This document shows, one piece after another, positions 7,514-31,031 of a DNA stretch of 32,000 bases. The notes under the pieces were generated by a model. That model had not been told where the DNA came from. It saw nothing but the letters and a program-made list of their open reading frames with translations, and ran no database searches. The translations under genes were made by a program, and so were the position numbers. Every line of letters begins with the position of its first letter. Position 1 is the stretch's first letter. Origin of the DNA: an uncultured Actinomycetes bacterium (GTDB lineage Bacteria; Actinomycetota; Actinomycetes; S36-B12; CAIYMF01); assembly GCA_963843975.1 (NCBI GenBank), contig CAWJMG010000001.1:1385532-1417531 (forward strand), given 5' to 3'.

Positions 7514-7573
7514 TGGCAAGGCCATGACGGTGACGAATCCGCTGAGGAGACGTCGTCCCAGGTCAGAGCCCCG

Positions 7574-7633
7574 AGTCACTGCCCCAAGTGGGGCTATGGG
7601 CGCGCTGAACAGCCCGCTTTGGGCAGTAACTCG
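7574..7633. repeat. 60-nt palindromic intergenic element, copy A (imperfect hairpin)
   Basis: AGTCACTGCCCCAAGTGGGGCT...AGCCCGCTTTGGGCAGTAACTCG aligns without gaps to 30951-31010. The arms are nearly identical and the loop has diverged. It lies 16 nt downstream of the ABC permease stop. Confidence 0.7.
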
Positions 7634-7648
7634 CGGAGGGGGCCGAGC

Positions 7649-15406: not shown

Positions 15407-16192
15407 ATGACCGAGCCCACGTACGTCGACTGGATCCATGCCGCGCGCGCTTCGCACGAGCGGCTGTCCGGGATCGCCGCAGGTCTGACCGAGGACCAGC
15501 TCGTCGCGCAGTCGTACGACACGGAGTGGACGGTCGCCCAGGTGCTCTCGCACATCGGCAGCGGCGCCGAGATCTTCGGGCTCATCCTCGACGCGTCCCT
15601 GGCCGGCGCGGAGGCTCCCGGCGGCGAGCAGTTCCAGGCTGTCTGGGCTGAGTGGAACGCCAAGTCGTCCGTCGCGATGCGCGACGACGCGATCGCGTCC
15701 AACACGTCGCTCGTCGACAAGCTGGAGGCCGTCACCCCCGAGCAGGCCGAGTCGGTGCTGTTCTCCTTCGGCCCGTTCTCGCTCGACCTCGCCGGTTTCG
15801 TGCGCATGCGTCTCAGCGAGCACGCGCTGCACACCTGGGACGTCGCGGTCTTCGTCGACCCCGAGGCCGCCGTGGCGCAGGACGCCGTGGCCCTGCTCCT
15901 CCCTGGCCTCGGCCAGATGGCAGGACGCGCCGGCAAGGCGGCCGACCCCGCGTTCTCGGTTCGGCTCGCGACGACCGACGGTCTCGGCGCCTGGGCGGTG
16001 CAGGCCAGCGAGTCCGCTGCGTTCGGCCCGGCCGACGACTCAGCGTCGTACGACGGGGAGGTGGCCCTGCCCGGCGAGGCGCTCCTGCGCCTCATCGCGG
16101 GTCGCCTCGACCCAGACCACACACCGGCCGGCGTCACCGAGTCGGGCGCCCGCGGCCTGGCCGACCTCCGCCAGGTCTTCCCCGGCTTCTGA
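15407..16192 (+). CDS. DinB-fold / maleylpyruvate isomerase N-terminal domain protein
   Basis: Start ATG 15407 with GGAAGG SD, within track ORF 15326..16192. Contains SYDTEWTVAQVLSHIGSGAE, a DinB-like metal-site helix. 261 aa. Confidence 0.72.
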   Translation: MTEPTYVDWIHAARASHERLSGIAAGLTEDQLVAQSYDTEWTVAQVLSHIGSGAEIFGLILDASLAGAEAPGGEQFQAVWAEWNAKSSVAMRDDAIASNTSLVDKLEAVTPEQAESVLFSFGPFSLDLAGFVRMRLSEHALHTWDVAVFVDPEAAVAQDAVALLLPGLGQMAGRAGKAADPAFSVRLATTDGLGAWAVQASESAAFGPADDSASYDGEVALPGEALLRLIAGRLDPDHTPAGVTESGARGLADLRQVFPGF

Positions 16193-16198
16193 CCTCGA

Positions 16199-16245
16199 TC
16201 TGGATGCGTGAGAGTCCGGTATCCAGGCCGATCAGCCATCCAGAA
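16199..16245. other. inverted repeat TCTGGATG ... CATCCAGA with internal repeats
   Basis: TCTGGATG (16199-16206) and CATCCAGA (16238-16245) are reverse complements, 31 nt apart. Inside are ATCCAG x2 and GTCCGG x2. The element starts 7 nt after the stop at 16192. The same arm sequence recurs at 29981-30032. Confidence 0.4.
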
Positions 16246-16268
16246 CGGGTCCGGCTAGGTTCGACGGC

Positions 16269-17490
16269 GTGAGCTCACAGCGGGTGGTCGTCGTCGGGGC
16301 TGGGCTCGGCGGGCTGCGGGCGGCCGAGGGGCTGCGCGCTGCCGGGTACGCCGACGAGATCGTGGTCGTCGGCGACGAGCCGCACGCGCCGTACAACCGG
16401 CCGCCTCTGTCCAAGGAGGCCCTGGCCGACGAGATCGCGCACGACCGGCTCGAGTTCCGCCGGCGTCCGTCCGTGGACGACGTGGTGTGGCGCCTCGGCG
16501 AGAGCGTCGAGGCGGTCGACGTCGACGCCCGCACGGTCTCGGTCGGCGGCGAGACGTCGGCGTGGGATGCGCTGGTGCTCGCGACCGGTGTGAGCGCCCG
16601 CCGGATCCGCGTGCCCGGCCCGCCCGCCACCGCCGCGGCCGGGCGTCACGTGGTGCGCACCCTCGACGATGCGGTCGCGCTGCGCGAGGCGCTCACGCCC
16701 GGGGCGCGCGTCGTCGTTCTCGGGGCCGGGTTCATCGGCTGCGAGGTCGCCGCCTCCGCGGTGGCGCTCGGTTGCTCGGTCCGGTGCGTGGCGCTCGACG
16801 CCGTGCCCATGATCCGGCCGCTCGGGCCGGTGCTCGGGGGCGAAGCTGCAGCGTCGGCACGAGGCGCACGGCGTCGAGTTCCACCTGGGCGTCGGAGTCA
16901 CGGAGATCGCGGGGGCCGACCGTGTGACGGGCGTCGTTCTCTCCGACGGCACGGAGCTCGAGGCCGACGTGCTCGTCGAGGCCCTGGGCTCGGTCTGCAA
17001 CGTCGGGCTGCTCGAGGGGCAGGGATTCGACCTCTCCGACGGCGTGCTCGCCGACACCGCGCTGCGCCCGCTGCGCTCTGGCGTCCCGGTCGACGGCATG
17101 GCAGTGGTCGGCGACATCGCGCGCTTCCCCCACCTGCGCTTCGAGGACCCCGCGCACCGCGTCGAGCACTGGAGCATCCCGACCGACACCGGCAAGCGTG
17201 CTGGTGCCGTGCTGGCGGCGTTCCTCGCAGGCGAGGGGTACGACGACGTGGTCGCCGCCGAGTGGGACGTGCTGCCGTCGTTCTGGTCGGACCAGTACGA
17301 CATCCGGATGCAGTCATATGGCATGCCCGGGCTCGCGGACGCCGACGGGATCCGGCTGCTCGAGGGCGACCTCGCCGACGAGTGCATCGTGGGCTACCAC
17401 CGGGGCGACGACCTGGTGGGCGTCGTCGGCCTCGGAATGCTGCGGACGCTCATCGGCTACCGCCCCCGCCTCGGCCGCGGCCGCGCCTGA
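16269..17490 (+). pseudogene. NAD(P)/FAD-dependent ferredoxin reductase, disrupted by a +1 frameshift near 16836-16847
   Basis: The frame from GTG 16269 reads a normal ferredoxin-reductase N-terminal half (VVVVGAGLGGLRAAE, VVVLGAGFIGCEVA) up to ...PLGPVLGG, then becomes Arg/Gly-rich nonsense. The +1 frame continues KLQRRHEAHGVEFHLGVGVTEIAGADRVTGVVLSDGTELEADVLVEALG... to the stop at 17490. Confidence 0.75.
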
Positions 17491-17538
17491 CCCACCAACG
17501 CCCTTGCGCTCAGGGCGCTGCGGCAGGACGTTAGAGGC

Positions 17539-18543
17539 ATGGCATCACTGCAGGCAGCCCTCGACGACGAGGCCGCGAGGACGCGCTTCTCCGGTGTCGT
17601 CCGCGTGGACCGCGGCAGCGACATCGAGGTGGCCTCGGCCTACGGGCTCGCCGACCGCGCCCACGGGGTCGCGATGACGGCGGACCACCAGGTGGGGACC
17701 GCGAGCCTGACGAAGGGCTTCACGGCGCTGACGGTGATGGGCCTGGTGGCCGACGGGGCGCTCGCGCTGGCCACCCCGGCCCGCTCGGTGCTCGGCACGG
17801 ATCTGCCGCTCATCGACGACGGGGTCACGGTCGAGCACCTGCTCAGCCACACGTCCGGCATCGGCGACTACCTCGACGAATCACTGCTGGAGTCCAGCGA
17901 CGACTACATCATGCCGGTCCCGGTGCACCGGCTCGCGACCAGCGACGACTACCTGGCGATCCTCGACGGGCACCCCATGGTCTCGGCGCCGGGCAGCACG
18001 TTCGTCTACAACAACGGCGCCTTCGTCGTCCTCGCTGTCATCGCCGAGCGCGTCGCAGGTGTGCCCTTCGCCGACCTCGTGGCCGAGCGGGTCTGGGCCC
18101 CAGCCGGCATGACGGGCACGGCCTTCCTGCGCATGGACGAGCTGCCGGGCACCGCCGCCCGCGGCTACCTCGGCACCGACGGTCTGCGCACCAACGTGCT
18201 GCACCTGCCCGTGCGCGGCAACGGTGACGGCGGCGCCTACACGACCGTGGCCGACCTGGCCGCCTTCTGGCCGGCGTTCCTGGCCGGGCGCATCGTCCCC
18301 GAGCTGTGGGTGGCGCAGATGCTCGTGCCGCGGCACCTGCCGACCGACGACTCCGTCGGCTGCGGCCTCGGGGTGTGGCTGCACGCGACCGGTGTCCTCC
18401 AGCTGCACGGGTACGACGCCGGGGTGTCGATCCGGTCGATGCACGACCCGGTCTCCTCGACGACGTGGACGGTTGCCTCCACCACCAGCAGCGGCTCCTA
18501 CCCCCTCGAGCGCGTCCTCCTGGCCGATCTGCCCCGTCGGTGA
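17539..18543 (+). CDS. serine hydrolase (class C beta-lactamase / esterase family)
   Basis: 334 aa with the S-x-x-K nucleophile motif (TASLTKGF) and LLSHTSGIGDY, typical of the beta-lactamase-related family. Confidence 0.82.
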   Translation: MASLQAALDDEAARTRFSGVVRVDRGSDIEVASAYGLADRAHGVAMTADHQVGTASLTKGFTALTVMGLVADGALALATPARSVLGTDLPLIDDGVTVEHLLSHTSGIGDYLDESLLESSDDYIMPVPVHRLATSDDYLAILDGHPMVSAPGSTFVYNNGAFVVLAVIAERVAGVPFADLVAERVWAPAGMTGTAFLRMDELPGTAARGYLGTDGLRTNVLHLPVRGNGDGGAYTTVADLAAFWPAFLAGRIVPELWVAQMLVPRHLPTDDSVGCGLGVWLHATGVLQLHGYDAGVSIRSMHDPVSSTTWTVASTTSSGSYPLERVLLADLPRR

Positions 18544-18579: not shown

Positions 18580-18627
18580 TTGACGGGTCACCCGCCCGCC
18601 ACTAGCGTCCCGTTCGGACCCAAACGA
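18580..18627 (+). promoter_or_regulatory. putative P450-operon promoter plus operator box (copy 1 of the 18-bp palindrome)
   Basis: TTGACG (18580-18585), 17 nt, TAGCGT (18603-18608). Then CCGTTCGGACCCAAACGA (18610-18627), and a GAGGAG SD before ATG 18668. Confidence 0.55.
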
Positions 18628-18667
18628 TTTCCCGCGACCGTGCCGCCGGACCACCCGAGGAGCCCTC

Positions 18668-19930
18668 ATGCAGCCGACCCCCGTGCCCCTGGACCAGGTC
18701 GACCTCGCCGACCTCGACGTGTTCGAGAAGAACGAGGCGTGGGGCATGTTCGACACGCTCCGCCGCGAGGCCCCCGTGCACTGGAACCCCGAGCACGACG
18801 GCGGCTCCGGTTTCTGGTCGATCACCCGGTACGACGACATCGAGATGATCGACAAGGACCCCGAGACCTTCACCTCGATGAAGTTCACCAACCTCGAGGA
18901 GCCCCCGGCCGAGTTCCAGGAGCTGCGCCGCTCGATCCTCGAGACCGACGGTCCGCGGCACATGTCGCTGCGCAAGCTCCTCATGCGCGACTTCAACCCG
19001 GCCCAGCTGCGCCGCTACGAGGACTTCCTGCGCGGCCTCGCCGCCCTCACCGTCGAGACGGCGCTGCAGCATGAGGAGATGGACTTCGTCGACGCCATCG
19101 CCGCCGACTACCCGATCGCGGTGCTCGCCCGCCTCCTCGACACCCCCGAGGAGATGACGCCGCAGCTCATCTCGTGGGGCAACGAGATCGTCGGCTTCTC
19201 CGACCCCGAGTTCGCGCGCGTGCTCGTCAACAGCGAGGAGGCGGAGAAGTACCGCCACCTCCCGTTCAGCTCGCCGGTGTCGCAGGAGATCTTCGAGTAC
19301 GGCCGCAAGCTCGCCGCCGAGCGCAAGGGCGGCGACGGCGAGGACCTCGTCAGCAAGCTCGTGAACCGCATCCCCGAGGACGGCATCCCGCTGTCGAACG
19401 AGCACTTCGACAACTACTTCCTGCTGCTCGTCGTCGCGGGGAACGAGACCACGCGTCAGGCGATCAGCCACTCGATGAAAGCTCTGATCGACAACCCCGA
19501 CCAGATGCAGTGGCTGCTCGACAACCCGGACAAGTACCCGCAGGCGATCGAGGAGCTTCTGCGCTGGGCCTCGCCGGTCTACCACTTCCGTCGTACGGCG
19601 ACCAAGGACGTCGAGCTCCACGGGAAGACCATCAAGGAGGGCGACAAGGTCGTCATGTGGTTCGCCTCGGGCAACCGCGACGAGACCAAGTTCGATGACC
19701 CGTACCGCCTCGACCTCAGCCGCTTCCCCAACGACCACATGACCTTCGGCAAGGGCCCGCACACCTGCATGGGCTCGAACCTCGCCCGGTTCGAGATGCG
19801 GATCATCTTCGAGACGCTCCTGCCGCGCCTCGTCTCGATCTCGCAGACCGGTGACATCCGCCGGGTGCGCAGCAACTTCGTCAACGGCATCAAGGGTTTC
19901 CCGGTGCGCATCGAGTCGAAGCAGGGCTGA
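18668..19930 (+). CDS. cytochrome P450
   Basis: 420 aa. I-helix VVAGNETTR, K-helix EELLRW (ExxR), heme loop FGKGPHTCMGSNLA with the cysteine ligand. Confidence 0.93.
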   Translation: MQPTPVPLDQVDLADLDVFEKNEAWGMFDTLRREAPVHWNPEHDGGSGFWSITRYDDIEMIDKDPETFTSMKFTNLEEPPAEFQELRRSILETDGPRHMSLRKLLMRDFNPAQLRRYEDFLRGLAALTVETALQHEEMDFVDAIAADYPIAVLARLLDTPEEMTPQLISWGNEIVGFSDPEFARVLVNSEEAEKYRHLPFSSPVSQEIFEYGRKLAAERKGGDGEDLVSKLVNRIPEDGIPLSNEHFDNYFLLLVVAGNETTRQAISHSMKALIDNPDQMQWLLDNPDKYPQAIEELLRWASPVYHFRRTATKDVELHGKTIKEGDKVVMWFASGNRDETKFDDPYRLDLSRFPNDHMTFGKGPHTCMGSNLARFEMRIIFETLLPRLVSISQTGDIRRVRSNFVNGIKGFPVRIESKQG

Positions 19931-19932
19931 GG

Positions 19933-20905
19933 ATGAGCGGCACCAAGACGACGGTCCGCGAGCACGAGGCCGAGCTCGTCGTCGAGTCGGTCGAGCGGGT
20001 GGCCGAGGGCGTCGTCGCCCTCACGCTCGTCGACCCCGACGGCGGCACGCTCCCCGCGTGGACTCCCGGCGCCCACGTCGATCTCGAGCTCGGCGACCTC
20101 GTCCGCCAGTACTCCCTGTGCGGCGACCCCGCCGATGCGCGGTCGTACACCGTCGCCGTGCTGCGCGAGCCCGAGTCGCGCGGAGGATCGGCGTACGTGC
20201 ACGAGTCGCTCGCTGCGGGCAGCCGCGTGGTGGTGCGCGGACCGCGCAACCACTTCGCGCTCGTCTCAGCCGCGCGCTACCGCTTCATCGCCGGTGGCAT
20301 CGGAATCACGCCGATGCTCCCCATGATCGCCGAGGCGGAGGCCATGGGCGCCGACTGGCACCTGTGGTACCGCGGCCGCGCCCGCGCCGGCATGGCCTAC
20401 TGCGACCTCCTCACGCAGTACGGCGACCGCGTCACGCTGCTGCCGGGCGACGAGACCGGCCCGCTCGACCTGGCCGCCGTCCTCGCCGACCCGGGCGACG
20501 GCACCGTCGTCTACGCGTGCGGTCCCGAGCGGCTGCTCGTGGGCATCGAGGAGGTGTGCGCGGCCTCGTGGCCGGCGTCCGCCCTGCACCTCGAGCGCTT
20601 CGCGGCCAAGGAGATCGAGGCGCCGGCGGGCGGCGAGCGGAAGCTTCGAGCTCGAGCTCGCGGCCTCGGGCGTCACCCTCACCGTGCCGCCGGACAAGTC
20701 CATCTTCAACGTCGTGCTCGAGGCGGGCATCAGCGTGCTCGGCTCCTGCCACGAAGGCGTCTGCGGCACCTGCGAGCAGATCGTGCTCGACGGCGACGTC
20801 GACCACCGCGACTCGGTGCTGAGCGAGTCCGAGCGCGCGGCCAACGACGCGATGATGGTCTGCGTCTCGCGCTGCTTCTCCGACCGCCTCGTCCTGGACC
20901 TGTGA
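19933..20905 (+). pseudogene. phthalate-dioxygenase-reductase (PDR/VanB)-type flavin + [2Fe-2S] oxidoreductase, disrupted by a +1 frameshift near 20640
   Basis: The frame from ATG 19933 gives flavin and NAD motifs (RQYSLCG, GGIGITPM) up to ...EIEAPAGGER, then Arg-rich nonsense. The +1 frame reads FELELAASGVTLTVPPDKSIF...SCHEGVCGTCEQ...VCVSRC (plant-type CX4CX2C...C ferredoxin domain) to the stop at 20905. The start is 2 nt after the P450 stop. Confidence 0.78.
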
Positions 20906-20909
20906 GGGG

Positions 20910-21971
20910 ATGGCCATGAGCTCTCCGCGCCGCGCCTTCTCCGCCGCCTTCCCGTCCGACTGCTGGTACGCGCTCGCGCGCTCCGGCGACGTCGACCGGG
21001 AGCCGTTCGGCCTTCGGGCCCTGGGCCTCCCCGTCGTGCTCTTCCGCGCAGCCGACGGCAGGGCTGTCGCGCTCGAGGACCGCTGCGCGCATCGTGCCTA
21101 CCCGCTGTCCGCCGGCGTCGTGGTCGAGGAGGGCCTGCGCTGCGGGCTCTGCGGCTTCGTCTACGACACCGACGGCCAGTGCATCTCCGTGCCCACTCAG
21201 CCCCGCGTGCCGTTCGGCGCGAAGGTGGCGTCGTACCCCGTCCAGGAGCGCGACGGCCTGGTGTGGGTCTGGCTCGGCGAGCCCGGCCGGGCCCGCCTGG
21301 CCCGCGTGCCGGAGCTGGCGTGGCTCGACGACGAGGCATGGGCCGGCGTGGGCGGCTCTGCCGTCGTGGCTGCCGGCTACCTCCTGCTCCACGAGAACTT
21401 CGCGGACGTGACCCAGGTGCCGTTCGTCGCACCGGAGATCGCGCCCAGCGTGATCGCTGTCGCGCCGCCGCTCGACGTCGTCGTCACGGAGACCACCGTG
21501 ACGCTGCGCCGCGAGTTCCCGCCCGCGCCGCTGCCGGCCTGGCAGGCCGATCTCCTCGGTGCCGGCGACGCCGCGTTCGAGACGCTGCAGGAGGGCTACT
21601 TCCTCTCGCCGGCGGCATGGGTCGACCACTGGGACGTGACGGGCGCCGACGGCACGACGGCACGCCTGCGGTTCACGCACCTGGTGACCCCGCTCGACGA
21701 GGGACTCTCGCAGCTGCACTGGCAGGTGGACCGCGACTTCGCCGTGGGTGACGAGGGCGCGGACGACCTCATGCTCGAGATGTTCGGCGACTACTACGAC
21801 CGCGTCCTGGCTGCGATGGAGACCGCGCAGGAGGTGCTCGACGTCGACGGCCGAGGCCCCGAGGTCAACGTGGCGGCCGACGTCGCCGCGCTCAAGGTCC
21901 GCGAGATCGTCCTCGCCATGCTCGCCACCGAGTCCCCGGCAGTCGTCACGACCCGCCGAGCCCGCGTCTGA
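20910..21971 (+). CDS. VanA-type Rieske-domain oxygenase-like protein with degenerate metal ligands
   Basis: 353 aa (alternative start ATG 20916, which is better spaced from GAGGGG). The Rieske region reads CAHRAYPLSAGVVVEEGLRCGLCGF, where CxH...CxxH is expected. The catalytic motif reads ENFADVTQVPFVA, where ENxxDxxHxxxxH is expected. Confidence 0.8.
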   Translation: MAMSSPRRAFSAAFPSDCWYALARSGDVDREPFGLRALGLPVVLFRAADGRAVALEDRCAHRAYPLSAGVVVEEGLRCGLCGFVYDTDGQCISVPTQPRVPFGAKVASYPVQERDGLVWVWLGEPGRARLARVPELAWLDDEAWAGVGGSAVVAAGYLLLHENFADVTQVPFVAPEIAPSVIAVAPPLDVVVTETTVTLRREFPPAPLPAWQADLLGAGDAAFETLQEGYFLSPAAWVDHWDVTGADGTTARLRFTHLVTPLDEGLSQLHWQVDRDFAVGDEGADDLMLEMFGDYYDRVLAAMETAQEVLDVDGRGPEVNVAADVAALKVREIVLAMLATESPAVVTTRRARV

Positions 21972-22002
21972 TGCCCGAGAACGACTCGAACGAGGAGAAG
22001 CC

Positions 22003-22803
22003 GTGTCCGAGCTGAAGGGGTTCGCCCCGCCGTACACCGTGAGCGGGCGCAGCGCGCTGATCCCGAACCCGCCGTGGTTCTACAGCGGCGACCTGCTCAC
22101 GGTGGAGTACCGGACCGACGTCGAGAAGGTCCGGGCCCTGCTCCCGGCCGACGTCGAGCTCGCGCCGGAGGACCCGGGCGCGGTCGCGTTCATCTGGGCC
22201 GACTGGCAGTCGTGCTCGACCGGCGGCGAGGAGCTGCTCGACCCCGCGCGCTCGCAGTACAAGGAGGCGTTCGCCGTCGTCCGCTGCCAGTACGAGGGCG
22301 GCACCTACTCGCGCTGCGTCCTCATCTGGGTCACCACCGACTTCGCCATGGCGCGCGGCATCCATCAGGGCTACCCGAAGAAGCTGGCCTCGATCCACCA
22401 GACGCGCCCGATGCCGTACGGCAAGGGTGCGCCGCGTATCGAGGCCGGCGCGAAGTTCGGAGCGACGGTGGCCGCGTACGACCACCGGCTCGCCCAGGCG
22501 GTGATCACGCTGACCGGGCCGGCGGACTCCAACGGATTCGTCAACGCGCTCCCGATGCTGCACCACCGACAGGTGCGGCCGATCGAGCGCGGCGCGGAGG
22601 GCTGGGCCCTCGACGAGGTGCTCACCATGAGCGGCGTCGGCTTCGAGGCCGGTCAGCCGTGGAAGGCCGAGGCGACCCTCGACCTGTTCGACTCCCCGTG
22701 GGACGACGTCGCCTCGACGCTGCCGGTGCGCGAGATCATCAGCGGGTACTACGTGCAGGTCGGCACGAGCTGGGACGGCGGTACGACGCTCGCCCACCGC
22801 TAG
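22003..22803 (+). CDS. acetoacetate decarboxylase (ADC) family protein
   Basis: GTG 22003 with GAGGAG SD, within track ORF 21748..22803. The N-terminus FAPPYTVSGRSALIPNPPWFYSGDLLTVEYRTD is characteristic of the ADC family. 266 aa. Confidence 0.75.
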   Translation: MSELKGFAPPYTVSGRSALIPNPPWFYSGDLLTVEYRTDVEKVRALLPADVELAPEDPGAVAFIWADWQSCSTGGEELLDPARSQYKEAFAVVRCQYEGGTYSRCVLIWVTTDFAMARGIHQGYPKKLASIHQTRPMPYGKGAPRIEAGAKFGATVAAYDHRLAQAVITLTGPADSNGFVNALPMLHHRQVRPIERGAEGWALDEVLTMSGVGFEAGQPWKAEATLDLFDSPWDDVASTLPVREIISGYYVQVGTSWDGGTTLAHR

Positions 22804-22812
22804 GAGGCGCGG

Positions 22813-23313
22813 CTACCTCGGGCGGACGCCCTTGTTCGCCACGATCTCGACGGCGTGCGGTGCCAGGGGCTTCAGCAGCGCCGTGGCGATGGTGCCGAGC
22901 TGGGACATCTGCTCGGGCGTGAGCACGTCCACCAGCAGCCGCCTCACCTCGCGGACGTGCGCGGGGGCGGACTCGACCATCTTGGCGAGGCCGGCGTCGG
23001 TCAGCACGGCCTCCACCGCGCGCGGGTCGACGGCAACCGGACGCCGCACGATGTACCCCTGCGCCTCGAGCCGCGACACGGCGTGCGACAGGCGCGACGG
23101 CGAGCCCGAGGCGAACTGCGCGAGCACGCTCATGCGCAGCGCGCGGTCCGGTGCGTCGCACAGACCAGCCATCACCTGGTACTCGAACGAGTTGAGGCAG
23201 GCGTCGCGCTTGAGCTGCGCGTCGACGGCGGCAGGGAGCGCCTCGAGCAGCATCGACACGGCGATCCACGTGCTCAGCTCGTCCGGGCTCAGCCACGGAA
23301 CGTCATCGGACAT
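22813..23313 (-). CDS. MarR family transcriptional regulator
   Basis: 166 aa with a MarR wHTH (FEYQVMAGLCDAPDRALRMSVLAQFASGSPSRLSHAVSRLEAQGYIVR). ATG 23313 lies 6 nt downstream of a TACCCT -10-like box, so the mRNA is probably leaderless. Confidence 0.88.
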   Translation of the reverse strand: MSDDVPWLSPDELSTWIAVSMLLEALPAAVDAQLKRDACLNSFEYQVMAGLCDAPDRALRMSVLAQFASGSPSRLSHAVSRLEAQGYIVRRPVAVDPRAVEAVLTDAGLAKMVESAPAHVREVRRLLVDVLTPEQMSQLGTIATALLKPLAPHAVEIVANKGVRPR

Positions 23314-23337
23314 GGCGGGAGGGTAGCGGACAGCGGT

Positions 23338-23390
23338 ACTTGAATCTTCAACTCGGGCGGTCTACAGTTCGGCTAACTTGAAGGTTCAAC
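23338..23390. promoter_or_regulatory. two copies of ACTTGAA-N2-TTCAAC operator in the MarR/DoxX divergent region
   Basis: ACTTGAATCTTCAAC (23338-23352) and ACTTGAAGGTTCAAC (23376-23390). Each has a TTGAA/TTCAA inverted repeat. The region is AT-rich. Confidence 0.6.
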
Positions 23391-23403
23391 ACAAGGAGAG
23401 ACC

Positions 23404-23778
23404 ATGAACGTCGCACTCTGGATCGTCGCCGGGCTGGTGGCCGCGGCGTTCCTCGGCGCCGGACTGATGAAGATCACCGGCAAGCGCGAGCAGATGCTCG
23501 AGCGCATGGCCTGGGTCGCCGACTACTCCCCGTCGCAGGTGAAGCTCATCGGCGTCGTCGAGGTGCTGGGCGCCCTCGGCCTCATCCTGCCCGCCGTCAC
23601 CGGGATCGCCCCGATCCTCGTGCCGATCGCTGCGACCGGGCTCGTCATCACCTCGGTCCTCGCCGCGATCATGCACATCCGTCGCGGCGACGGCGTCGGC
23701 TCGGCCGTGCCGGTCCTCGTGCTCGGCCTCCTCGCTGCGTTCGTCGCCTGGGGCCGCTTCGGTCCGTACGCCTTCTAG
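23404..23778 (+). CDS. DoxX-like family membrane protein
   Basis: 124 aa with four hydrophobic helices and DoxX-like sequence (MNVALWIVAGLVAAAFLGAGLMKI...). AAGGAGAG SD upstream. Confidence 0.8.
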   Translation: MNVALWIVAGLVAAAFLGAGLMKITGKREQMLERMAWVADYSPSQVKLIGVVEVLGALGLILPAVTGIAPILVPIAATGLVITSVLAAIMHIRRGDGVGSAVPVLVLGLLAAFVAWGRFGPYAF

Positions 23779-23784
23779 TCCCTG

Positions 23785-23827
23785 CATGACGAGGGGTCCC
23801 GCCGGTTCGGCGGGGCCCCTCGTCATG
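23785..23827. terminator. bidirectional stem-loop terminator between doxX-like and GS-like genes
   Basis: CATGACGAGGGGTCCCGCCG-gtt-CGGCGGGGCCCCTCGTCATG: 20-bp stem with a single U-G position, between convergent stops at 23778 and 23839. Confidence 0.7.
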
Positions 23828-23838
23828 GGCGGATGGGT

Positions 23839-25182
23839 CTACAGGTGGTACGCGTACTCGCGGAACTCCCAGTCGGTGACGAAGCGCGAGAACCGCTCGA
23901 CCTCGTTGCGCTTGTAGGTCAGGAACGAGTTCACGAAGAACTCGCCGACCACCTGGGCCAGCGCGGTGTCGGCCTCGAGGGCGTCGAGCGCCTCGGGCAG
24001 CGACTGCGGCAGCATCGGGGCGCTCTCGGGGTCGTAGCCGTAGCCCTCGAGCGGTGCGGCGGGCTCGAGCTTGTCGCGGACGCCGAGGTAGATGGCGGCG
24101 CTCACCGCGGCCATGGCGAGGTACGGGTTGGCCGTGGCGTCGCCGAGGCGCACCTCCATACGGGCCGCCCCACCGCGCTCCGGCGGGATGCGGACCATCG
24201 CGCTGCGGTTGTCCAGGCCCCAGTCGATGAGCCAGGGCGCGAGGGTGTCCGGCCCGAACCGCTTGTAGGAGTTGATCGTCGGGTTGAGGATCGCGGCGAG
24301 TGCCGGCGCGTGGGCGAGGACGCCCGCGATGGCTGCGCGGCCGATCGCCGACAGCCCGTCCTGGCCCTCCGGGTCGCCGAACACGTTGGTGCCGTCGCTG
24401 TCCACGAGCGAGATGTGCAGGTGGAAGCCGCTGCCGCCCTCGTCGTTGAACGGCTTGGCCATGAACGTCGCGAGCATGCCCTCGTGGCGGGCGATCTCCT
24501 GGACGGCCGACTTCATGCGGAACGCGCGGTCGGCGGCGTCGAGCAGGTCGGAGTGGTTGAGGTTGATCTCGAACTGGCCGGGCGAGAACTCGTGGTTGGC
24601 AGCGGTCACCTGCAGCGAGGCGTCGCGCATGTAGCGCAGCATCGTCAGCAGCATGCCCTTCGGGTCGCCCTTGCGGCCGACGACGTACACGTTGCCGGGC
24701 TGGTCGGCGTACCGCCCCCACCCGGTGGTGCTCGCGGCGTCCTGCTCGAGGAGGTAGAACTCGAGCTCCGGACCGATCACCGCGCTGACGCCGAGCTCGC
24801 TCAGCTTGGCCGAGACGCGACGCGCGACCTCTCGCGGCGACTCCTCCGCCGCGGTGCCGCCGAGGACGGTCGTGTCGGCGAGGCACCAGGCGGCGCCCGG
24901 CTCCCACGGCAGCGTGGTGAGCGTGGTGAGGTCCGGCCGCGCGCTGATGTCGGGCAGGCCGCTCTCGATGCCGCCCTGCACCGGGACGACGTCGCCCATG
25001 GGGGAGGTGTGGTAGACCGCGCGGCAGAACGCGATGCCGTGCCCCATGACGCTCGCCAGCTCGTCGATGAGGACGTCGCGACCGCGGTCGACACCGATCA
25101 GGTCGGGGTACGAGACGCGGATGACGTCGATGCCCTTCGCGCGCAGGTCCTCGACCAGGGCGGACACGTCGACGTTGTCCAT
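23839..25182 (-). CDS. glutamine synthetase family protein (gamma-glutamyl-amine synthetase, PuuA/GlnA3-4-like)
   Basis: 447 aa. Contains the GS catalytic-domain motif GGSGFHLHISL and NHEFSPGQFEIN. AAGGAG SD upstream. Confidence 0.85.
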   Translation of the reverse strand: MDNVDVSALVEDLRAKGIDVIRVSYPDLIGVDRGRDVLIDELASVMGHGIAFCRAVYHTSPMGDVVPVQGGIESGLPDISARPDLTTLTTLPWEPGAAWCLADTTVLGGTAAEESPREVARRVSAKLSELGVSAVIGPELEFYLLEQDAASTTGWGRYADQPGNVYVVGRKGDPKGMLLTMLRYMRDASLQVTAANHEFSPGQFEINLNHSDLLDAADRAFRMKSAVQEIARHEGMLATFMAKPFNDEGGSGFHLHISLVDSDGTNVFGDPEGQDGLSAIGRAAIAGVLAHAPALAAILNPTINSYKRFGPDTLAPWLIDWGLDNRSAMVRIPPERGGAARMEVRLGDATANPYLAMAAVSAAIYLGVRDKLEPAAPLEGYGYDPESAPMLPQSLPEALDALEADTALAQVVGEFFVNSFLTYKRNEVERFSRFVTDWEFREYAYHL

Positions 25183-25219
25183 GCGGATCTCCTTGCCATG
25201 GGGTGCTGACCGGGTCTAG

Positions 25220-25237
25220 TCGTTCGGGTACGAACGA
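25220..25237. promoter_or_regulatory. operator box, copy 2 of the 18-bp palindrome
   Basis: TCGTTCGGGTACGAACGA has perfect 7-bp arms TCGTTCG/CGAACGA. It lies 38 nt upstream of the GS-like start codon. A further GAACGATAG (25243-25251) follows; that 9-mer also occurs at 27541-27549. Confidence 0.55.
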
Positions 25238-25323
25238 TGGGGGAACGATAGTGGCCGTGCCGCCACGGGGGAAGGGGTCGGCGCAAACTGCCCGAGCCCT
25301 TGCGGGGCTGCGGGTCGGGCCAT

Positions 25324-25341
25324 ATGTTCGGACCCGAACGA
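25324..25341. promoter_or_regulatory. operator box, copy 3 of the 18-bp palindrome
   Basis: ATGTTCGGACCCGAACGA (GTTCGG-AC-CCGAAC core), immediately upstream of the GAGGAG SD of the amidotransferase gene. Confidence 0.5.
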
Positions 25342-25353
25342 GAGGAGCCGCCG

Positions 25354-26067
25354 GTGCGCGCGCTGTTCGTCCAGCAGGACCACGTCTCGCCCGTCGGGCC
25401 GGTCGGTGCGCAGCTCGAGGCGCGCGGGTACGACGTCGAGGAGTTCCTCGTCGTCCCCGAGAGCCGGTTCCACGACCCCAATGTGGCAGCGGTGTTCCCC
25501 GACCCGCGCGACTTCGACGTGATCGTGCCCATGGGCGCCCCCTGGTCGGTGTACGACCACGCGACGATCGGCGCCTGGGTGCTCGAGGAGCTGACGTTCC
25601 TGCGCACGGCGCACGACGCCGGCGTACCCGTCCTCGGGATCTGCTTCGGCGGCCAGGCGCTCGCCGCGGCGCTCGGCGGAGCGGTCGAGCGCGCGCCCGA
25701 GGCCGAGGTCGGCTGGTACGAGATCGAGAGCGACGCACCGGGCCTCGTCGAGCCGGGGCCGTGGTTCCAGTGGCACCACGACCGGTGGGTCGCGCCGCCC
25801 GGTGCCGAGGTCATCGCCCGTACTCCCGTCGCGCAGCAGGCCTTCACGATCGGTCGCAGCATGGGCGTGCAGTTCCACCCCGAGCTCACCCCGGAGCAGC
25901 TGCAGGGGTGGCTCGACAACGGCGGCAGCACTTACCTCGAGGCGCACGGCGAGGACGCCGGGGCGCTGCTCGAGGTCACCGAGCGGACGGCGTCTGCCGC
26001 GCAGGCCCGCAGCCGGCTGCTGGTGGACCGGTTCCTCGACCAGGTGGCCTCGCGGCCGCAGGGGTGA
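25354..26067 (+). CDS. class I glutamine amidotransferase-like protein
   Basis: GTG 25354 after GAGGAG. Nucleophile elbow GICFGGQ and VQFHPE (His/Glu of the triad). 237 aa. The track ORF extension back to 25300 has A-ending codons and carries the operator and SD. Confidence 0.8.
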   Translation: MRALFVQQDHVSPVGPVGAQLEARGYDVEEFLVVPESRFHDPNVAAVFPDPRDFDVIVPMGAPWSVYDHATIGAWVLEELTFLRTAHDAGVPVLGICFGGQALAAALGGAVERAPEAEVGWYEIESDAPGLVEPGPWFQWHHDRWVAPPGAEVIARTPVAQQAFTIGRSMGVQFHPELTPEQLQGWLDNGGSTYLEAHGEDAGALLEVTERTASAAQARSRLLVDRFLDQVASRPQG

Positions 26068-26072
26068 TCCGA

Positions 26073-26102
26073 GCGTGCGGGCCCGAACGACTCTCGTAGA
26101 CT
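26073..26102 (+). promoter_or_regulatory. operator box copy 4 plus -10-like element in front of the MarR gene
   Basis: GCGTGCGGGCCCGAACGA (26073-26090), then TAGACT (26097-26102) 7 nt before GTG 26110, which fits a leaderless mRNA. Confidence 0.45.
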
Positions 26103-26109
26103 CGCGGAC

Positions 26110-26790
26110 GTGGCAGCCGTGACCCCGTCGGGCAAGACGCTTCCACGCGCTGCATCCGGCGCCCGCCGGCCGGTCGCCCACGTCGTCCACCCCGACGACT
26201 GCGACCCCAGCAGCTGCCCCTGCGACGACGCGGAGTGCTCGTTGAGCAAGTACGTGCGCGCCACCACCGCCGCCGCCGACCCGAGCCCCACGGGCGAGCA
26301 CACGCTCGAGGCCACCGAGCAGGCCGTCGCCGAGCGCCTCGCGGGCCTCGAGGTCGACATGGCCGCGATGGCCGCCGTCTCGAACATCTACCGCGCCGCC
26401 AACGCCGTACGGAACCACCTCGAGCGCACCGTGCTCGCGCCGCACGACCTCACCTGGACCGGCTGGGTCGTGCTCTGGGTGGTGTGGATCTGGGGCGACA
26501 TCGAGAGCCGCCACGTCGCCGCCGAGGCCGGCATCTCCAAGGGCACGCTGACCGGCGTCCAGAACACCCTGATCTCGCGCGGTCTCGTCAAGCGCCGGGT
26601 CCACCCCGACGACGCGCGCCGCGTGCTGCTCTCGCTCTCGCCCAAGGGTCAGAAGCTGATGGGCGAGCTCTTCCCGAAGTTCAACGCCGAGGAGGCGTTC
26701 GTCGCGAGCCAGCTCGACGACGCCGCCAAGCTCGCGATGGCCCGCAGTCTCCGCACCGTCGTCAAGCAGGCCGAGAACGGCACCGCCTGA
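26110..26790 (+). CDS. MarR family transcriptional regulator (possible HpaR-like) with Cys/His-rich N-terminal extension
   Basis: 226 aa. MarR wHTH (SRHVAAEAGISKGTLTGVQNTLISRGLVKRRVHPDDARRVLLSLSPKG). It is preceded by about 70 extra residues including HVVHPDDCDPSSCPCDDAEC, and third positions across that extension are G/C-rich. Confidence 0.82.
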   Translation: MAAVTPSGKTLPRAASGARRPVAHVVHPDDCDPSSCPCDDAECSLSKYVRATTAAADPSPTGEHTLEATEQAVAERLAGLEVDMAAMAAVSNIYRAANAVRNHLERTVLAPHDLTWTGWVVLWVVWIWGDIESRHVAAEAGISKGTLTGVQNTLISRGLVKRRVHPDDARRVLLSLSPKGQKLMGELFPKFNAEEAFVASQLDDAAKLAMARSLRTVVKQAENGTA

Positions 26791-26796
26791 CGCGGG

Positions 26797-27501
26797 TCAG
26801 CGGGCGGCGTCGACCAGGGCTCGGAAGAGCGCGAGCTGCGCGGGGTCGGTCTCGAAGGTGTCCTCGGGGTGCCACTGGACGGCGAGGAACCAGCCCTTCG
26901 CGTCGATGAGCGCTGCGGCCTCGACCGTGCCGTCGGCAGCATGCGCGATCGGTACGAGGCCGGCGCCGAGGCGGCTCACGCGCTGGTGGTGGTAGCAGGA
27001 CGCCGCCGTCGTGGCGCCGACGACGTCGGCGAGCAACGACCCGGCATCCACGGCCACCTCATGCACCACGTGCCGGTGGGGCTCGGCCATGTGCTGCTCG
27101 AGCTCGCCGCCGAGGGCGACGTTCACGACCTGCCAGCCGCGGCAGACCGCGAGCAGCGGCGTGCCGGATGCGATGGCCCAGCGTGCGACCGCGAGGTCGA
27201 AGGCGTCCTGCTCGGCGTCGACGTCGTAGACGTGCTCGCTGCGCTCGCTCTGCCCGTACGTCGCCGGATCGAGGTCGCCGCCGCCCGGGAGCAGCACGGC
27301 GTCCACGAATCCGAGGCGGGCTGCGACGTCCTCGACGCTCACGACGCCGCCGGGCGCCCACGGATGGATCGTGACCGGCTCGCCGCCGGCGCGCAGTACG
27401 CCCTCGGACAGCGCGCGGGCCGTGCTGATCGCGCGGTTGCGGTGGGCGGACGCCGATGCCGAGAACCGGGCGGGGATCGCGACGATCGGGGACCGCGACA
27501 T
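26797..27501 (-). CDS. gamma-glutamyl-gamma-aminobutyrate hydrolase family protein (peptidase C26, PuuD-like)
   Basis: Starts at ATG 27501 (MSRSPIVAIPARF) with GGAGG SD, within track ORF 26797..27708. Motifs LLPGGGD, AVCRGWQ (Cys nucleophile), VQWHPE. 234 aa. Confidence 0.82.
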   Translation of the reverse strand: MSRSPIVAIPARFSASASAHRNRAISTARALSEGVLRAGGEPVTIHPWAPGGVVSVEDVAARLGFVDAVLLPGGGDLDPATYGQSERSEHVYDVDAEQDAFDLAVARWAIASGTPLLAVCRGWQVVNVALGGELEQHMAEPHRHVVHEVAVDAGSLLADVVGATTAASCYHHQRVSRLGAGLVPIAHAADGTVEAAALIDAKGWFLAVQWHPEDTFETDPAQLALFRALVDAAR

Positions 27502-27504
27502 CTC

Positions 27505-27546
27505 TTGACGCCTCCGCAGCAGGGCCATACGTTTGTGTCCGAACGA
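27505..27546 (+). promoter_or_regulatory. putative hpaE-operon promoter overlapped by operator box copy 5
   Basis: TTGACG (27505-27510), 17 nt, TACGTT (27528-27533). ACGTTTGTGTCCGAACGA (27529-27546) overlaps the -10. It is followed by GAACGATAG and the palindrome CCGGATCCGG (27551-27560). Confidence 0.55.
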
Positions 27547-27598
27547 TAGCCGGATCCGGCTCGCTCGTGCCACCCCCATCCTCGCGGAGGCCCGCCCC

Positions 27599-29071
27599 AT
27601 GACCAACGCAGTCGTCGCCGGTGTCGAGGTCGACACCCGGCACTGGATCGGAGGCGAGCGCGTCGCGAGCGCGACGACGTTCGAGGACGTCTCGCCGCTC
27701 GACGGCACGGTGATCGCCGAGGTGAGCCGCGGGGGTCAGGCCGAGGTCGACGCCGCCGTCGCCGCCGCCAAGGCCGCGTTCCCTGCCTGGGCCGCGCTGC
27801 CGGTGGCCGAGCGCTCGGCCATCCTGGTCAAGGTCGCCGAGGGCATCGAGGCGCGCATCGAGGACCTCGCCCAGGTCGAGACGCGCGACAACGGCTCGCT
27901 GCTGCGCTCGCACCGCCGCGGCGTCATGCCGCGCGTGGCGATGAACATCCGCTTCTTCGCCGAGTACGCCGTGAACGAGCTCTCCCACCCCGACTTCGAC
28001 ACTCGCGGCCACCGCAACCACGTCTCGTGGGACCCGGCCGGCGTCACCGCGATCGTCACGCCGTGGAACGCACCGCTCATGCTCGCCACCTGGCGCATCG
28101 GCCCGGCGCTCGCGGCTGGCAACACCGTGGTCGCGAAGCCGCCGGAGTGGGCGCCGCTGACGGCGTCGCTGTTCGCCGACATCGCCCACGAGGCGGGGCT
28201 TCCCGCCGGCGTCTTCAACATCGTGCAGGGCCTCGGCACCGAGGCCGGCGCACCGCTCGTCGCGCACCCCGACGTACGCCGGGTCTGCTTCACCGGCTCG
28301 GTGCCGACGTCGATCAAGATCGGCGAGTCCGCGGCCCGCAACGTCACCCCCGTGAGCTTCGAGCTCGGCGGCAAGTCGCCGCTGCTGGTCTTCGACGACG
28401 CCGACCTCGACCTCGCGGTCGACCTCGCCGTCGAGCAGTTCGACAACTCCGGGCAGGTCTGCCTCGCTGCCGTGCGCATGCTCGTGCAGGACGGCATCTA
28501 CGACGAGTTCCGCGCGCGGTTCCTCGAGCGCGCAGCCCAGGTGAAGCAGGGCGACAGCCGCGACGAGTCGTCCGACATCGGGCCGCTCGTGAGCCGGACC
28601 CACTTCGACCGGGTCGACGGATTCGTGACGCGCGCGGTCGCGGACGGCGCCCGGGTGATCCTGGGTGGCGAGCCCAACCATGAGCTCAACGAAGCGACCG
28701 GCGGATTCTTCTACAAGCCCACGGTGTTCGAGGATGTCGACCGCACGATGGAGATCACCTGCCAGGAGGTCTTCGGACCCGTCCTGACCCTCCAGCGATT
28801 CGGCACCGAGGAGGACGGCGTCGCGATGGCGAACGACACCGACTTCGGCCTCGCGGCCACCCTCGTCACCGGAAGCCAGGAGCGCGCCGAGCGCGTCTCC
28901 TCGCAGCTGCGCGCCGGCACGGTCTGGATCAACTGCTTCTTCGTGCGCGATCTCTCCGCGCCCTTCGGCGGCTCCGGCCGCTCGGGCATCGGACGTGAGG
29001 GCGGCCTCTGGTCGTTCGACTTCTACTGCGATGTCAAGAACTCTGTGTTCGCCCCGAAGGGATGGAACTGA
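27599..29071 (+). CDS. hpaE: 5-carboxymethyl-2-hydroxymuconate semialdehyde dehydrogenase-like aldehyde dehydrogenase
   Basis: ATG 27599 after GCGGAGG, 490 aa. ALDH motifs FELGGKSP and catalytic Cys GQVCLA. The C-terminus VRDLSAPFGGSGRSGIGREGGLWSFDFYCDVKNSV closely resembles my recollection of E. coli HpaE (VRDLRQPFGGVKASGTGREGGEYSFEVFAEMKNV). Confidence 0.85.
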   Translation: MTNAVVAGVEVDTRHWIGGERVASATTFEDVSPLDGTVIAEVSRGGQAEVDAAVAAAKAAFPAWAALPVAERSAILVKVAEGIEARIEDLAQVETRDNGSLLRSHRRGVMPRVAMNIRFFAEYAVNELSHPDFDTRGHRNHVSWDPAGVTAIVTPWNAPLMLATWRIGPALAAGNTVVAKPPEWAPLTASLFADIAHEAGLPAGVFNIVQGLGTEAGAPLVAHPDVRRVCFTGSVPTSIKIGESAARNVTPVSFELGGKSPLLVFDDADLDLAVDLAVEQFDNSGQVCLAAVRMLVQDGIYDEFRARFLERAAQVKQGDSRDESSDIGPLVSRTHFDRVDGFVTRAVADGARVILGGEPNHELNEATGGFFYKPTVFEDVDRTMEITCQEVFGPVLTLQRFGTEEDGVAMANDTDFGLAATLVTGSQERAERVSSQLRAGTVWINCFFVRDLSAPFGGSGRSGIGREGGLWSFDFYCDVKNSVFAPKGWN

Positions 29072-29072
29072 C

Positions 29073-29966
29073 ATGGGTGAGGTTGTCGGAGCGGGGCTTC
29101 TGTCCCACGTGCCCACGATCATGGCTCCGCTCGAGGAGCGGCTCGCGCTCAACGGCGGCAAGGAGATCTCGCTCGTCCCCGCCCTGCACCAGCTGCGCGC
29201 GGAGAAGTTCGAGCAGCTCGACTACGACACCGTGATCGTGCTCGACTCGCACTGGTTCACGACGGTCGAGTTCATCGTGACCTCGCAGGACCTCCGCGCC
29301 GGCCTGTTCACGGCCGAGGAGCTCCCGCGCGGCATGTGCCGCATCCCGTACGAGTGGAAGGGCGACCGCGAGCTCGCCGAGGCGATCGCAGCCGAGGGTG
29401 AGCCGGCCGGCACCTGGATCACCGCGATCGACGACCCGTACCTGCCGCTGTACTACCCGTCGATCAACCTCTGGTCGTACCTCGGCAAGGGCATGGACAA
29501 GCAGTGGATCTCGATCTCGGTCTGCCAGACCGGTGACACCGACGACTTCCTGCGCGTGGGGCGCGCGATCCGTGCCGCGGTCGAGAAGACCGACCGCAAG
29601 GTGATCATCATCGCGACCGGCTCGATGTCGCACACGTTCTACAAGCTCAAGGAGCTGCGCAAGCACGAGAGCAGCGACCCGTCGCACATCATCACCCAGA
29701 AGGCGCGCGACATGGACCACGAGCGCCTCGAGTGGTTCTTCGAGGGCCGCCACGACCGGGTGCTCGACACCATGCCGGAGTTCCTCACGGTGCGGCCCGA
29801 GGGCATGTTCGCCCACTACCTGATGATGGCCGCGGCGCTCGGTGAGCACGACTTCAGCGCGCCCGGGGTCCAGTACGGCGACTACGAGAACGCCATCGGC
29901 ACGAGCCAGGTCCACGTGTGGTTCGACCGCCCCGAGGCCGGTTGGACCGCGCCCCGCACCGCCTGA
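29073..29966 (+). CDS. hpaD: LigB-family extradiol ring-cleavage dioxygenase, homoprotocatechuate 2,3-dioxygenase (HpaD)-like
   Basis: ATG 29073, 1 nt after the hpaE stop, 297 aa. Contains LSHVPTIM, DTVIVLDSHWF and GSMSHTF, which parallel E. coli HpaD (THVPSM, DTIIVFDTHW, GSLSHRF). Confidence 0.82.
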   Translation: MGEVVGAGLLSHVPTIMAPLEERLALNGGKEISLVPALHQLRAEKFEQLDYDTVIVLDSHWFTTVEFIVTSQDLRAGLFTAEELPRGMCRIPYEWKGDRELAEAIAAEGEPAGTWITAIDDPYLPLYYPSINLWSYLGKGMDKQWISISVCQTGDTDDFLRVGRAIRAAVEKTDRKVIIIATGSMSHTFYKLKELRKHESSDPSHIITQKARDMDHERLEWFFEGRHDRVLDTMPEFLTVRPEGMFAHYLMMAAALGEHDFSAPGVQYGDYENAIGTSQVHVWFDRPEAGWTAPRTA

Positions 29967-29980
29967 CCGACGTACCGACC

Positions 29981-30032
29981 CGCTCTGGATGACTGAAAGG
30001 CACGTTCCCATGCCCTTCACGCATCCAGAGCG
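29981..30032 (+). other. intercistronic inverted repeat (11-bp perfect arms) between hpaD-like and FAH genes
   Basis: CGCTCTGGATG (29981-29991) and CATCCAGAGCG (30022-30032) are separated by a 30-nt spacer. The core TCTGGATG/CATCCAGA is identical to the repeat at 16199-16245. Confidence 0.5.
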
Positions 30033-30053
30033 AGCAACCTTCTGGGAGAGAAC

Positions 30054-30929: not shown

Positions 30930-30950
30930 CCGCACCGGTCGCAGGCCGCG

Positions 30951-31010
30951 AGCTACTGCCCAAAGTGGGGTGTTGGCGCAGCCCGAAGCCCCACTTTGGG
31001 CAGTAACTCG
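30951..31010. repeat. 60-nt palindromic intergenic element, copy B (perfect 17-bp stem)
   Basis: TACTGCCCAAAGTGGGG (30954-30970) pairs perfectly with CCCCACTTTGGGCAGTA (30989-31005) around an 18-nt loop. It starts 22 nt after the FAH stop. Homologous to 7574-7633. Confidence 0.75.
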
Positions 31011-31031
31011 AAGAATATGGAGGGTGGCGGG

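Follow-up and report, generated by a model that had tools for sequence, protein, structure and literature searches.

A conserved palindrome upstream of oxygenase, gamma-glutamylation and meta-cleavage genes in an uncultured actinobacterium, with a MarR-family regulator as its probable binder

A cluster of catabolic genes in an uncultured Actinomycetes bacterium (contig CAWJMG010000001.1, positions 1,385,532 to 1,417,531, a stretch of 32,000 nt to which we refer as the window) carries five copies of an 18-bp palindrome in the promoter regions of genes that code, among others, for a P450, a glutamine synthetase (GS)-like ligase and homologs of hpa proteins. These five palindromes are almost certainly the binding sites of one repressor. 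Judging from sequence and conservation, they are probably the operators of a dimeric winged-helix protein, most likely MarR2, the MarR-family regulator encoded within the same cluster. The sites themselves, their excess over chance, their conservation and placement and their co-conservation with MarR2 are observed; binding by MarR2, a repressing instead of an activating effect and the nature of the inducer are inferred.

The initial annotation had located the five 18-mers at positions 18610, 25220, 25324, 26073 and 27529, all of them non-coding, and they are found verbatim at these coordinates. Our gene map of the window (GC content ca. 72%), based on open reading frames (ORFs), GC content by codon position and matches to Pfam and NCBIfam, leaves 11.5% as non-coding, and each palindrome falls in an intergenic gap within this fraction. 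Site 18610 lies between the stop of a beta-lactamase-fold gene (18543) and the start of the P450 gene (18668). Sites 25220 and 25324 share the gap between the divergent start of the GS-like gene (25182, minus strand) and that of a class-I glutamine amidotransferase-like gene (GATase, 25354), site 26073 stands between the GATase stop (26067) and the GTG start of MarR2 (26110), and site 27529 between the divergent starts of a peptidase C26 gene (PepC26; 27501, minus strand) and an aldehyde dehydrogenase gene (ALDH, 27599). With up to two mismatches, the pattern TCGTTCG-N4-CGAACGA matched the window at exactly these five places compared to 0.39 expected, and none of 100 shuffled sequences reached five. 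Allowing three mismatches added a single match, at 19591 inside the P450 gene, which equals the chance expectation. Since this pattern had been derived from the window itself, we also built a position weight matrix (PWM) from 215 sites of other genomes, leaving out the three closest relatives. This matrix found four of the window sites at ca. 26 bits (individual scores are given with the sites below) and the one at 26073 at 10.0 bits, and the maxima of 100 shuffles had a median of 5.8, a 95th percentile of 10.3 and a highest value of 18.3. The next best position in the window scored 3.1 and was coding, and with neither the pattern nor the PWM did the motif exceed its chance frequency in the coding part of the window. 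Four sites are thus strong; the fifth (26073), with a degenerate left half, is weak and marginal on score alone. The CGTgCGG variant that it represents recurs at the same position in relatives. The sites and their promoter elements are the following.

18580-18608, plus strand: putative P450 promoter, with -35 TTGACG (18580-18585), a 17-nt spacer and -10 TAGCGT (18603-18608).
18610-18627: P450 operator CCGTTCGGACCCAAACGA, starting 2 nt past the -10; 25.7 bits.
25220-25237: GS-like operator TCGTTCGGGTACGAACGA, with perfect arms, 38 nt upstream of the minus-strand ATG; 26.8 bits.
25245-25250, minus strand: putative -10 (TATCGT) of the GS-like gene, 7 nt upstream of the operator, proposed from the ACGATAGTG block conserved across loci.
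25300-25341, plus strand: putative GATase promoter and operator, with -35 TTGCGG (25300-25305), 17 nt and -10 TATGTT (25323-25328).
25324-25341: GATase operator ATGTTCGGACCCGAACGA, overlapped by the -10 and followed by GAGGAG and the GTG at 25354; 26.1 bits.
26073-26090: weak MarR2 operator GCGTGCGGGCCCGAACGA, in the spacer/-35 zone of a TAGACT -10 (26097-26102); 10.0 bits.
27505-27548: divergent PepC26/ALDH control region, with the putative ALDH -35 TTGACG (27505-27510) and -10 TACGTT (27528-27533).
27529-27546: PepC26/ALDH operator ACGTTTGTGTCCGAACGA; 26.0 bits.
27543-27548, minus strand: possible PepC26 -10 (TATCGT), formed by the operator right arm plus ATA.

We compared the window with 80 fetched genomic loci that encode a MarR2 ortholog (1.38 Mb in total; labels such as L001 designate related loci or metagenome contigs), the closest of which were Nanopelagicales metagenome-assembled genomes and Longivirga aurantiaca, with 87-91% nucleotide identity to the window. 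The 18-mer pattern had 236 matches in these loci, against 5-16 in shuffled versions, and the invariant core CGTTnGG-N2-CCnAACG, with at most one mismatch, had 229 (3-5 in shuffles) distributed over 69 of the 80 loci. Taking the mapped homologs of the window genes as reference, not one of the 236 matches was inside a gene, and 177 were located within 350 bp upstream of the start of a cluster gene. An upstream site was found at the GS-like gene in 47 of 58 loci, at ALDH in 40 of 65, at GATase in 32 of 48, at peptidase C26 in 32 of 49, at P450 in 28 of 73 and at the acetoacetate-decarboxylase-like (ADC-like) gene in 16 of 46. The motif is kept in orthologous promoters of Nanopelagicales, Longivirga, Nocardioides, Kineosporiaceae, Streptosporangiaceae and Streptomyces, with a consensus TCGTTCGGA|TCCGAACGA and the form TCGTTTGGGTTCAAACGA in Streptomyces, and lineages seemingly devoid of it carry a degenerate form, e.g., ACGTTTGGACCCTAACGA. 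Recurrent extra sites precede an APC-family permease gene and, in some genomes, a EutQ-like cupin gene, both of which lie beyond the right edge of the window; the permease promoter of the cluster regulon also has a second, -35-proximal site. It might still be argued that the recurrence is due to chance or is a by-product of shared promoter hexamers, given that TAnnnT -10 hexamers make use of the outer bases in several sites and that the fifth site is within the shuffle range. However, the excess over expectation in the window, the four sites near 26 bits where shuffles attained at most 18.3 and the 229 core matches against 3-5 refute this explanation together with the conservation. The conserved core reaches well past any -10 hexamer, and we give chance or shared hexamers practically no credence.

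The location of the operators relative to the promoters was obtained by phylogenetic footprinting. A generic scan for sigma-70 promoters between 18300 and 27800 called none, as its thresholds, set on the Escherichia coli consensus, are unsuited to an actinobacterium of 72% GC; the promoters described here are putative ones, proposed from conservation. The two that had been claimed initially, TTGACG-17-TAGCGT at P450 and TTGACG-17-TACGTT at ALDH (the "hpaE-like" gene), are present with these hexamers and spacings and are both conserved in orthologous promoters. At P450, CCCTTGACG-N17/18-TAnnnT is conserved with the operator directly after it, and 12 orthologous promoters keep this operator in the form CGTTCGGATCCAAACGA. 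At the GS-like gene, CACTATCGT is found ca. 7 nt ahead of the operator across loci. The GATase footprint (26 loci) consists of TTGC/TTGAC-N17-TA(T/C)GTT overlapping the left arm, with AAGGAG and the start codon after the right arm. In the PepC26/ALDH gap (35 loci) the sole conserved blocks were a TTGACG abutting the peptidase start codon and, after a variable 17-nt spacer, aATACGTTTGnnTCCGAACGATAnC, the left arm of the operator overlapping the rightward -10 TACGTT. The weak variant upstream of MarR2 is identical in L001 and L003 and has versions with two or three mismatches in L004-L006 and L009. All over the footprinted gaps, the operator and its flanking -35/-10 elements were the only conserved blocks. 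In the MarR2 loci the operator core also has conserved positions at the ADC-like and permease genes, over their conserved -35/-10 boxes or shortly past them. The operator overlaps the -10 at ALDH, GATase and PepC26 and follows it directly at P450 and the GS-like gene, so that the repressor positions proposed at the outset, over the -10 or at about +1, agree with the footprints. The outermost left bases (ATG..., ACG...) are off-palindrome in several sites because the same bases serve as part of the TAnnnT -10. 

Two additional features of these gaps were observed. The gap between the GS-like gene and GATase contains a GGGAAG(G/A)G box (GGGAAG at 25269-25274, within 25267-25277) that is conserved in ca. 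25 loci and stands 18 nt from the minus-strand TATCGT; it is not a TTGACA-type -35. The TAGACT at 26097-26102 is located 7 nt before the GTG of MarR2, a layout of the leaderless type that suggests, from sequence, a leaderless MarR2 transcript starting at an internal promoter; the lineage of L042, L061, L062 and L071 has an equivalent TAGGAT-N7-GTG, there without operator.

In a second matrix, made from 178 promoter-proximal sites, the information is concentrated at positions 2-8 and 11-18, and the centre varies. The 18-bp palindrome over the -10/+1 region fits the two-fold symmetric operators of about 16-20 bp of MarR-type regulators. Inverted repeats could also act as nucleic acid hairpins (terminator, attenuator, RNA stability element or repetitive extragenic palindrome-type repeat), and the same 18-mer does occur as the core of longer hairpins. 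This became apparent in a scan of metagenome contigs that used the exact palindrome as query, independently of MarR2, and that recovered 120 contigs with 124 exact matches. Among these, 22 were cores of longer hairpins with A and T runs in unrelated soil contigs of ca. 65% GC. In the cluster-linked sites, however, the arms are not extended, no T-run is present and no terminator was called. Moreover, the mirrored positions 6 and 13 are occupied by an unpairable C/A in 58 of the 178 sites, an asymmetry that is conserved within target classes (e.g., the P450 sites), indicating that the sequence and not the pairing is kept. In three promoter classes the overlap of left arm and -10 keeps part of the palindrome out of the transcript. 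The C/A asymmetry, the overlap with the -10 and the lack of T-runs therefore favor sequence recognition by a dimeric protein over nucleic acid structure, and a hairpin function is very improbable. The longer palindromes of the soil contigs, e.g., AAATCGTACGGA-TCGTTCGGATCCGAACGA-TCTGTACGATTT, found in L108, L188, L170, L134, L167, L107, L172, L099, L103 and others, look like a hairpin or terminator-type repeat family of unrelated soil bacteria, so that the 18-mer by itself has no diagnostic value beyond the actinobacterial lineage studied here.

As to the protein that would bind these operators, the in-cluster MarR gene at 26110-26790 (plus strand), proposed as candidate in the initial annotation, holds up well. 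Its product, MarR2, matches PF01047 with 37 bits (cutoff 24.6), and its AlphaFold2 monomer model has the helix and wing topology of MarR proteins, with a predicted local distance difference test (pLDDT) above 95 at residues 84-224; all matches in the PDB were MarR proteins. It has thousands of homologs and belongs to a tight family at 55-94% identity. An unbiased clustering of the ORFs in the 80 loci found MarR2 (71 loci) as the only recurrent regulator; the next one, MarR1, appeared in six and no other in more than six. In most arrangements the site stands ahead of the transcription unit of MarR2, i.e., in GATase-MarR2 operons, in arrangements where it is divergent from P450 or the GS-like gene, and in Streptomyces, and in L029, L031 and L059 it is ahead of MarR2 though cluster genes are not adjacent. 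The window itself has a layout of the autoregulation type, with the weak 26073 site and the strong 25324 site upstream of the GATase-MarR2 unit. The motif-first scan provided another case. In L082 and L181 the exact palindrome is located between ALDH and a gene for a MarR protein 44% identical to MarR2, followed by LigB and FAH genes and without GS-like or P450 genes; this MarR protein lacks the Cys-rich N-terminus of MarR2 and keeps the GTLTGV recognition helix and the wing. There appears to be, therefore, a strong association of the palindrome with this MarR family together with the meta-cleavage core.

Without inducer, the repressor would sit over the -10 hexamer or the start-site region and block RNA polymerase. 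Through five sites it would control six promoters, those of the P450 operon, the GS-like gene, GATase(-MarR2), MarR2, peptidase C26 and the operon of ALDH, LigB, FAH and LLM genes. The inducer that releases it would be the pathway substrate or an intermediate, probably an aromatic amine or the corresponding acid.

Several facts weigh against the assignment to MarR2. The 80 loci were retrieved through MarR2, and its presence in them is thus by construction. Every cluster promoter has a site, so that having one upstream is not in itself a distinction of MarR2, and the MarR2-proximal site of the window is weak, close to the 95th percentile of the shuffle maxima. Some MarR2 homologs (L055, L062, L071 and L072) are without a detectable site, a search for a diverged palindrome upstream of them having given none; here MarR2 comes after the GATase gene, and it is the GS-like gene that has an operator upstream, the degenerate ACGTTTGGACCCTAACGA. 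Lastly, the palindrome is not exclusive to the cluster, as only 20 of the 120 contigs from the motif-first scan, and 20 of the 124 exact matches, were linked to it. Ca. 33 exact matches fell in coding-like ORFs and are probably due to chance. Eleven others, TCGTTCGGnnCCGAACGA, stand 2 nt ahead of a TTGAC -35 that precedes genes for an FTR1 iron permease or a ZIP transporter, with polA as neighbor (L140, 5649-5666; L150, 2144-2161; L142, 3666-3683; L164, 3341-3358; also L115, L192, L087, L089, L121, L153 and L163). None of these contigs has cluster genes, and three adjoin a gene for a DtxR-family repressor.

The metal-transporter contigs could indicate that the palindrome is the operator of a regulator encoded elsewhere, either metal-responsive (DtxR/MntR-type) or a global factor, and that MarR2 binds something else. 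Yet a DtxR-like gene is absent from most of the 11 contigs and from all 80 cluster loci, the FTR1/ZIP operator is upstream of the -35, unlike the position in the cluster, and the motif accompanies genes of the MarR family in clusters of two distinct types. A chance match of an 8-bp half-site is also plausible among the many regulons sampled in a terabase-scale search. We consider a regulator encoded elsewhere unlikely. Another regulator of the window could also be invoked, since MarR1 (22813-23313, inside the cluster), a TetR (13783-14400), an AraC/DJ-1 protein (11556-12566) and a second MarR protein, MarR0 (3770-4240), are encoded nearby. This is hardly credible, considering that MarR1 is present in only six of the 80 loci and the TetR in one, against 69 with the motif, that MarR1 has no similarity to MarR2, and that the PWM found no site in the gap between MarR1 and the adjacent DoxX gene. 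MarR2 hence remains the preferred binder.

A peculiarity of MarR2 is an N-terminal extension of ca. 85 residues that contains four Cys in the motif CDPxRCPCDDAxC (residues 31-43, nt ca. 26200-26241), followed by SLSRYVR. The four-Cys extension is at least 90% conserved in 69 MarR2 homologs, and the model predicts the Cys-rich N-terminus poorly (pLDDT 45-60). It may be a metal or redox site. The FTR1/ZIP class of palindromes may represent the operator of some other regulator, identical by coincidence, or may be part of a broader regulon linked to metals. That the four-Cys module is a metal or redox (Zn or Fe-S) sensor and that the FTR1/ZIP palindromes belong to the same regulator family is, taken together, quite improbable. 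If it were true, one MarR-type factor would couple an amine catabolism rich in haem, Rieske and Fe(II) enzymes to metal supply, acting as repressor at the -10/+1 sites and possibly as activator at the -35-proximal ones.

The genes downstream of the operators, which amount to more than a P450 operon and an hpa operon, are listed below.

18668-22803, plus strand: operon 1, coding for the P450, an FNR-like reductase, a Rieske/VanA_C oxygenase and the ADC-like protein, as assigned by Pfam/NCBIfam and synteny.
23839-25182, minus strand: target 2, GS-like ligase of the gamma-glutamyl-amine synthetase type (Gln-synt_C, 348 bits; below all equivalog cutoffs).
25354-26067, plus strand: target 3, class-I glutamine amidotransferase-like protein (GATase), co-directional with MarR2.
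26797-27501, minus strand: target 4, peptidase C26, a PuuD-like gamma-glutamyl hydrolase (PF07722, Peptidase_C26, 160 bits).
27599-31967, plus strand: operon 5, coding for ALDH (HpaE-like), a LigB-type extradiol dioxygenase, a FAH-family (HpaG-like) protein and an F420-type LLM oxidoreductase.

The presence in one cluster of a GS-like ligase, a gamma-glutamyl hydrolase and an ALDH (Aldedh, 525 bits) corresponds to the gene set of amine gamma-glutamylation pathways of the Puu/Ipu/Atd type, and the set is co-conserved in more than 30 loci. The hpa equivalogs were the best matches of the meta-cleavage genes, all below their cutoffs (HpaE 519 bits with a cutoff of 638, HpaD 127 with 316 and HpaG-C 196 with 276), and the designation as an hpa operon is a putative one. 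By its predicted functions, the cluster combines genes of an amine pathway of the gamma-glutamylation type with oxygenase genes and a meta-cleavage module. In nearly all of the 80 loci the enzymes are co-located with MarR2 despite a reshuffled order and orientation, and this reshuffling spans Nocardioides, Kineosporiaceae, Streptosporangiaceae and Streptomyces. The idea that one regulator joins three gene blocks that would otherwise seem unrelated is supported by the synteny or co-location of these blocks across dozens of genomes. 

Related loci also contain an APC-family amino-acid/amine permease (47 of 80, with one or two operators), and in nine loci a group-II pyridoxal phosphate (PLP) decarboxylase of the aromatic amino-acid decarboxylase type is located between the ADC-like and GS-like genes. 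Permease, cupin and decarboxylase genes lie at 16091-17617 (minus strand) in L001, 14915-16450 (plus) in L012, 16653-17012 (plus) in L011 and 6278-7702 (minus) in L015. These additions hint at an amino-acid-derived aromatic amine, e.g., tyramine or dopamine, as substrate. 

The operator thus links P450/Rieske, "glutamine synthetase", amidotransferase and "hpa" genes that automated annotation would split, and in relatives the amino-acid permease and the PLP decarboxylase also join the co-regulated unit, conserved from Nanopelagicales to Streptomyces. This leads to the testable hypothesis of a so far undescribed route in which gamma-glutamylation of an aromatic amine supplies a meta-cleavage of the homoprotocatechuate type, and the putative operator/repressor pair could be used for finding the inducer, and hence the substrate. 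In the literature that we searched, neither this cluster nor its regulon is described; operator, regulon and unified pathway appear to be undescribed so far. The regulatory mechanism itself, a MarR repressor acting on a palindrome over the -10, is conventional.

PcaV, CouR and HcaR are MarR-type repressors of aromatic catabolism that act locally on a pseudo-palindrome of 16-20 bp over the catabolic promoter, are autoregulated and are released by a pathway intermediate. The multi-operon regulon (six promoters) and the Cys-rich extension of MarR2 are untypical of these proteins. The in-cluster MarR had been proposed by analogy to HpaR of the hpa meta-cleavage operon, a weak justification; both have the MarR fold. 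As an HpaR ortholog MarR2 has to be discarded, with 51.4 bits against the cutoff of 121.2 of the HpaR equivalog (TIGR02337) and a similarity to the solved HpaR of only E=2e-7. Like HpaR of E. coli W and Yersinia pseudotuberculosis, it adjoins a meta-cleavage operon with ALDH, extradiol dioxygenase and FAH-type genes, and both have palindromic operators, one of them overlapping the -10, with a site near the regulator's own gene (PMC7180172). However, the operators of HpaR are TTAA-N4-TTAA (PMC7180172), different from the CGTTCGG-N2-CCGAACG found here, and unlike HpaR, MarR2 has the four-Cys extension and a regulon that also spans gamma-glutamylation, P450/Rieske and permease genes.

Gamma-glutamylation pathways have been described for putrescine (Puu), ethanolamine (GlnA4/EpuRI, in Streptomyces), aniline (Atd/Tdn) and 1-naphthylamine (PMC6529630, PMC8998196, PMC11335346). 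As in the cluster described here, a GS-like ligase is encoded together with an ALDH and with either a class-I amidotransferase or a peptidase C26 hydrolase. The aniline clusters have two-component Rieske dioxygenases, in contrast to the P450, VanA-type Rieske oxygenase and hpa-like meta-cleavage module found here. The known regulators of aniline clusters are LysR-type. In Streptomyces, glnA4 is controlled by a divergently encoded repressor, EpuRI (PMC6529630, PMC8998196, PMC11335346), functionally analogous to MarR2. EpuRI was considered as a possible ortholog and no link was made, as its family and motif are not stated in PMC6529630 and PMC8998196.

Two other features of the region deserve mention. 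The divergent MarR1/DoxX pair (22813-23778), located between the oxygenase operon and the GS-like gene and found in six of the 80 loci, probably forms a small module of its own. A ferredoxin-reductase-type flavoprotein is encoded upstream of the P450 operon, at 16269-17534 (Pyr_redox_2; best matches to HcaD and AndAa reductases). No operator precedes the window copy; the gene recurs in 23 related loci and its product may be the redox partner of the P450 or of the Rieske enzymes.

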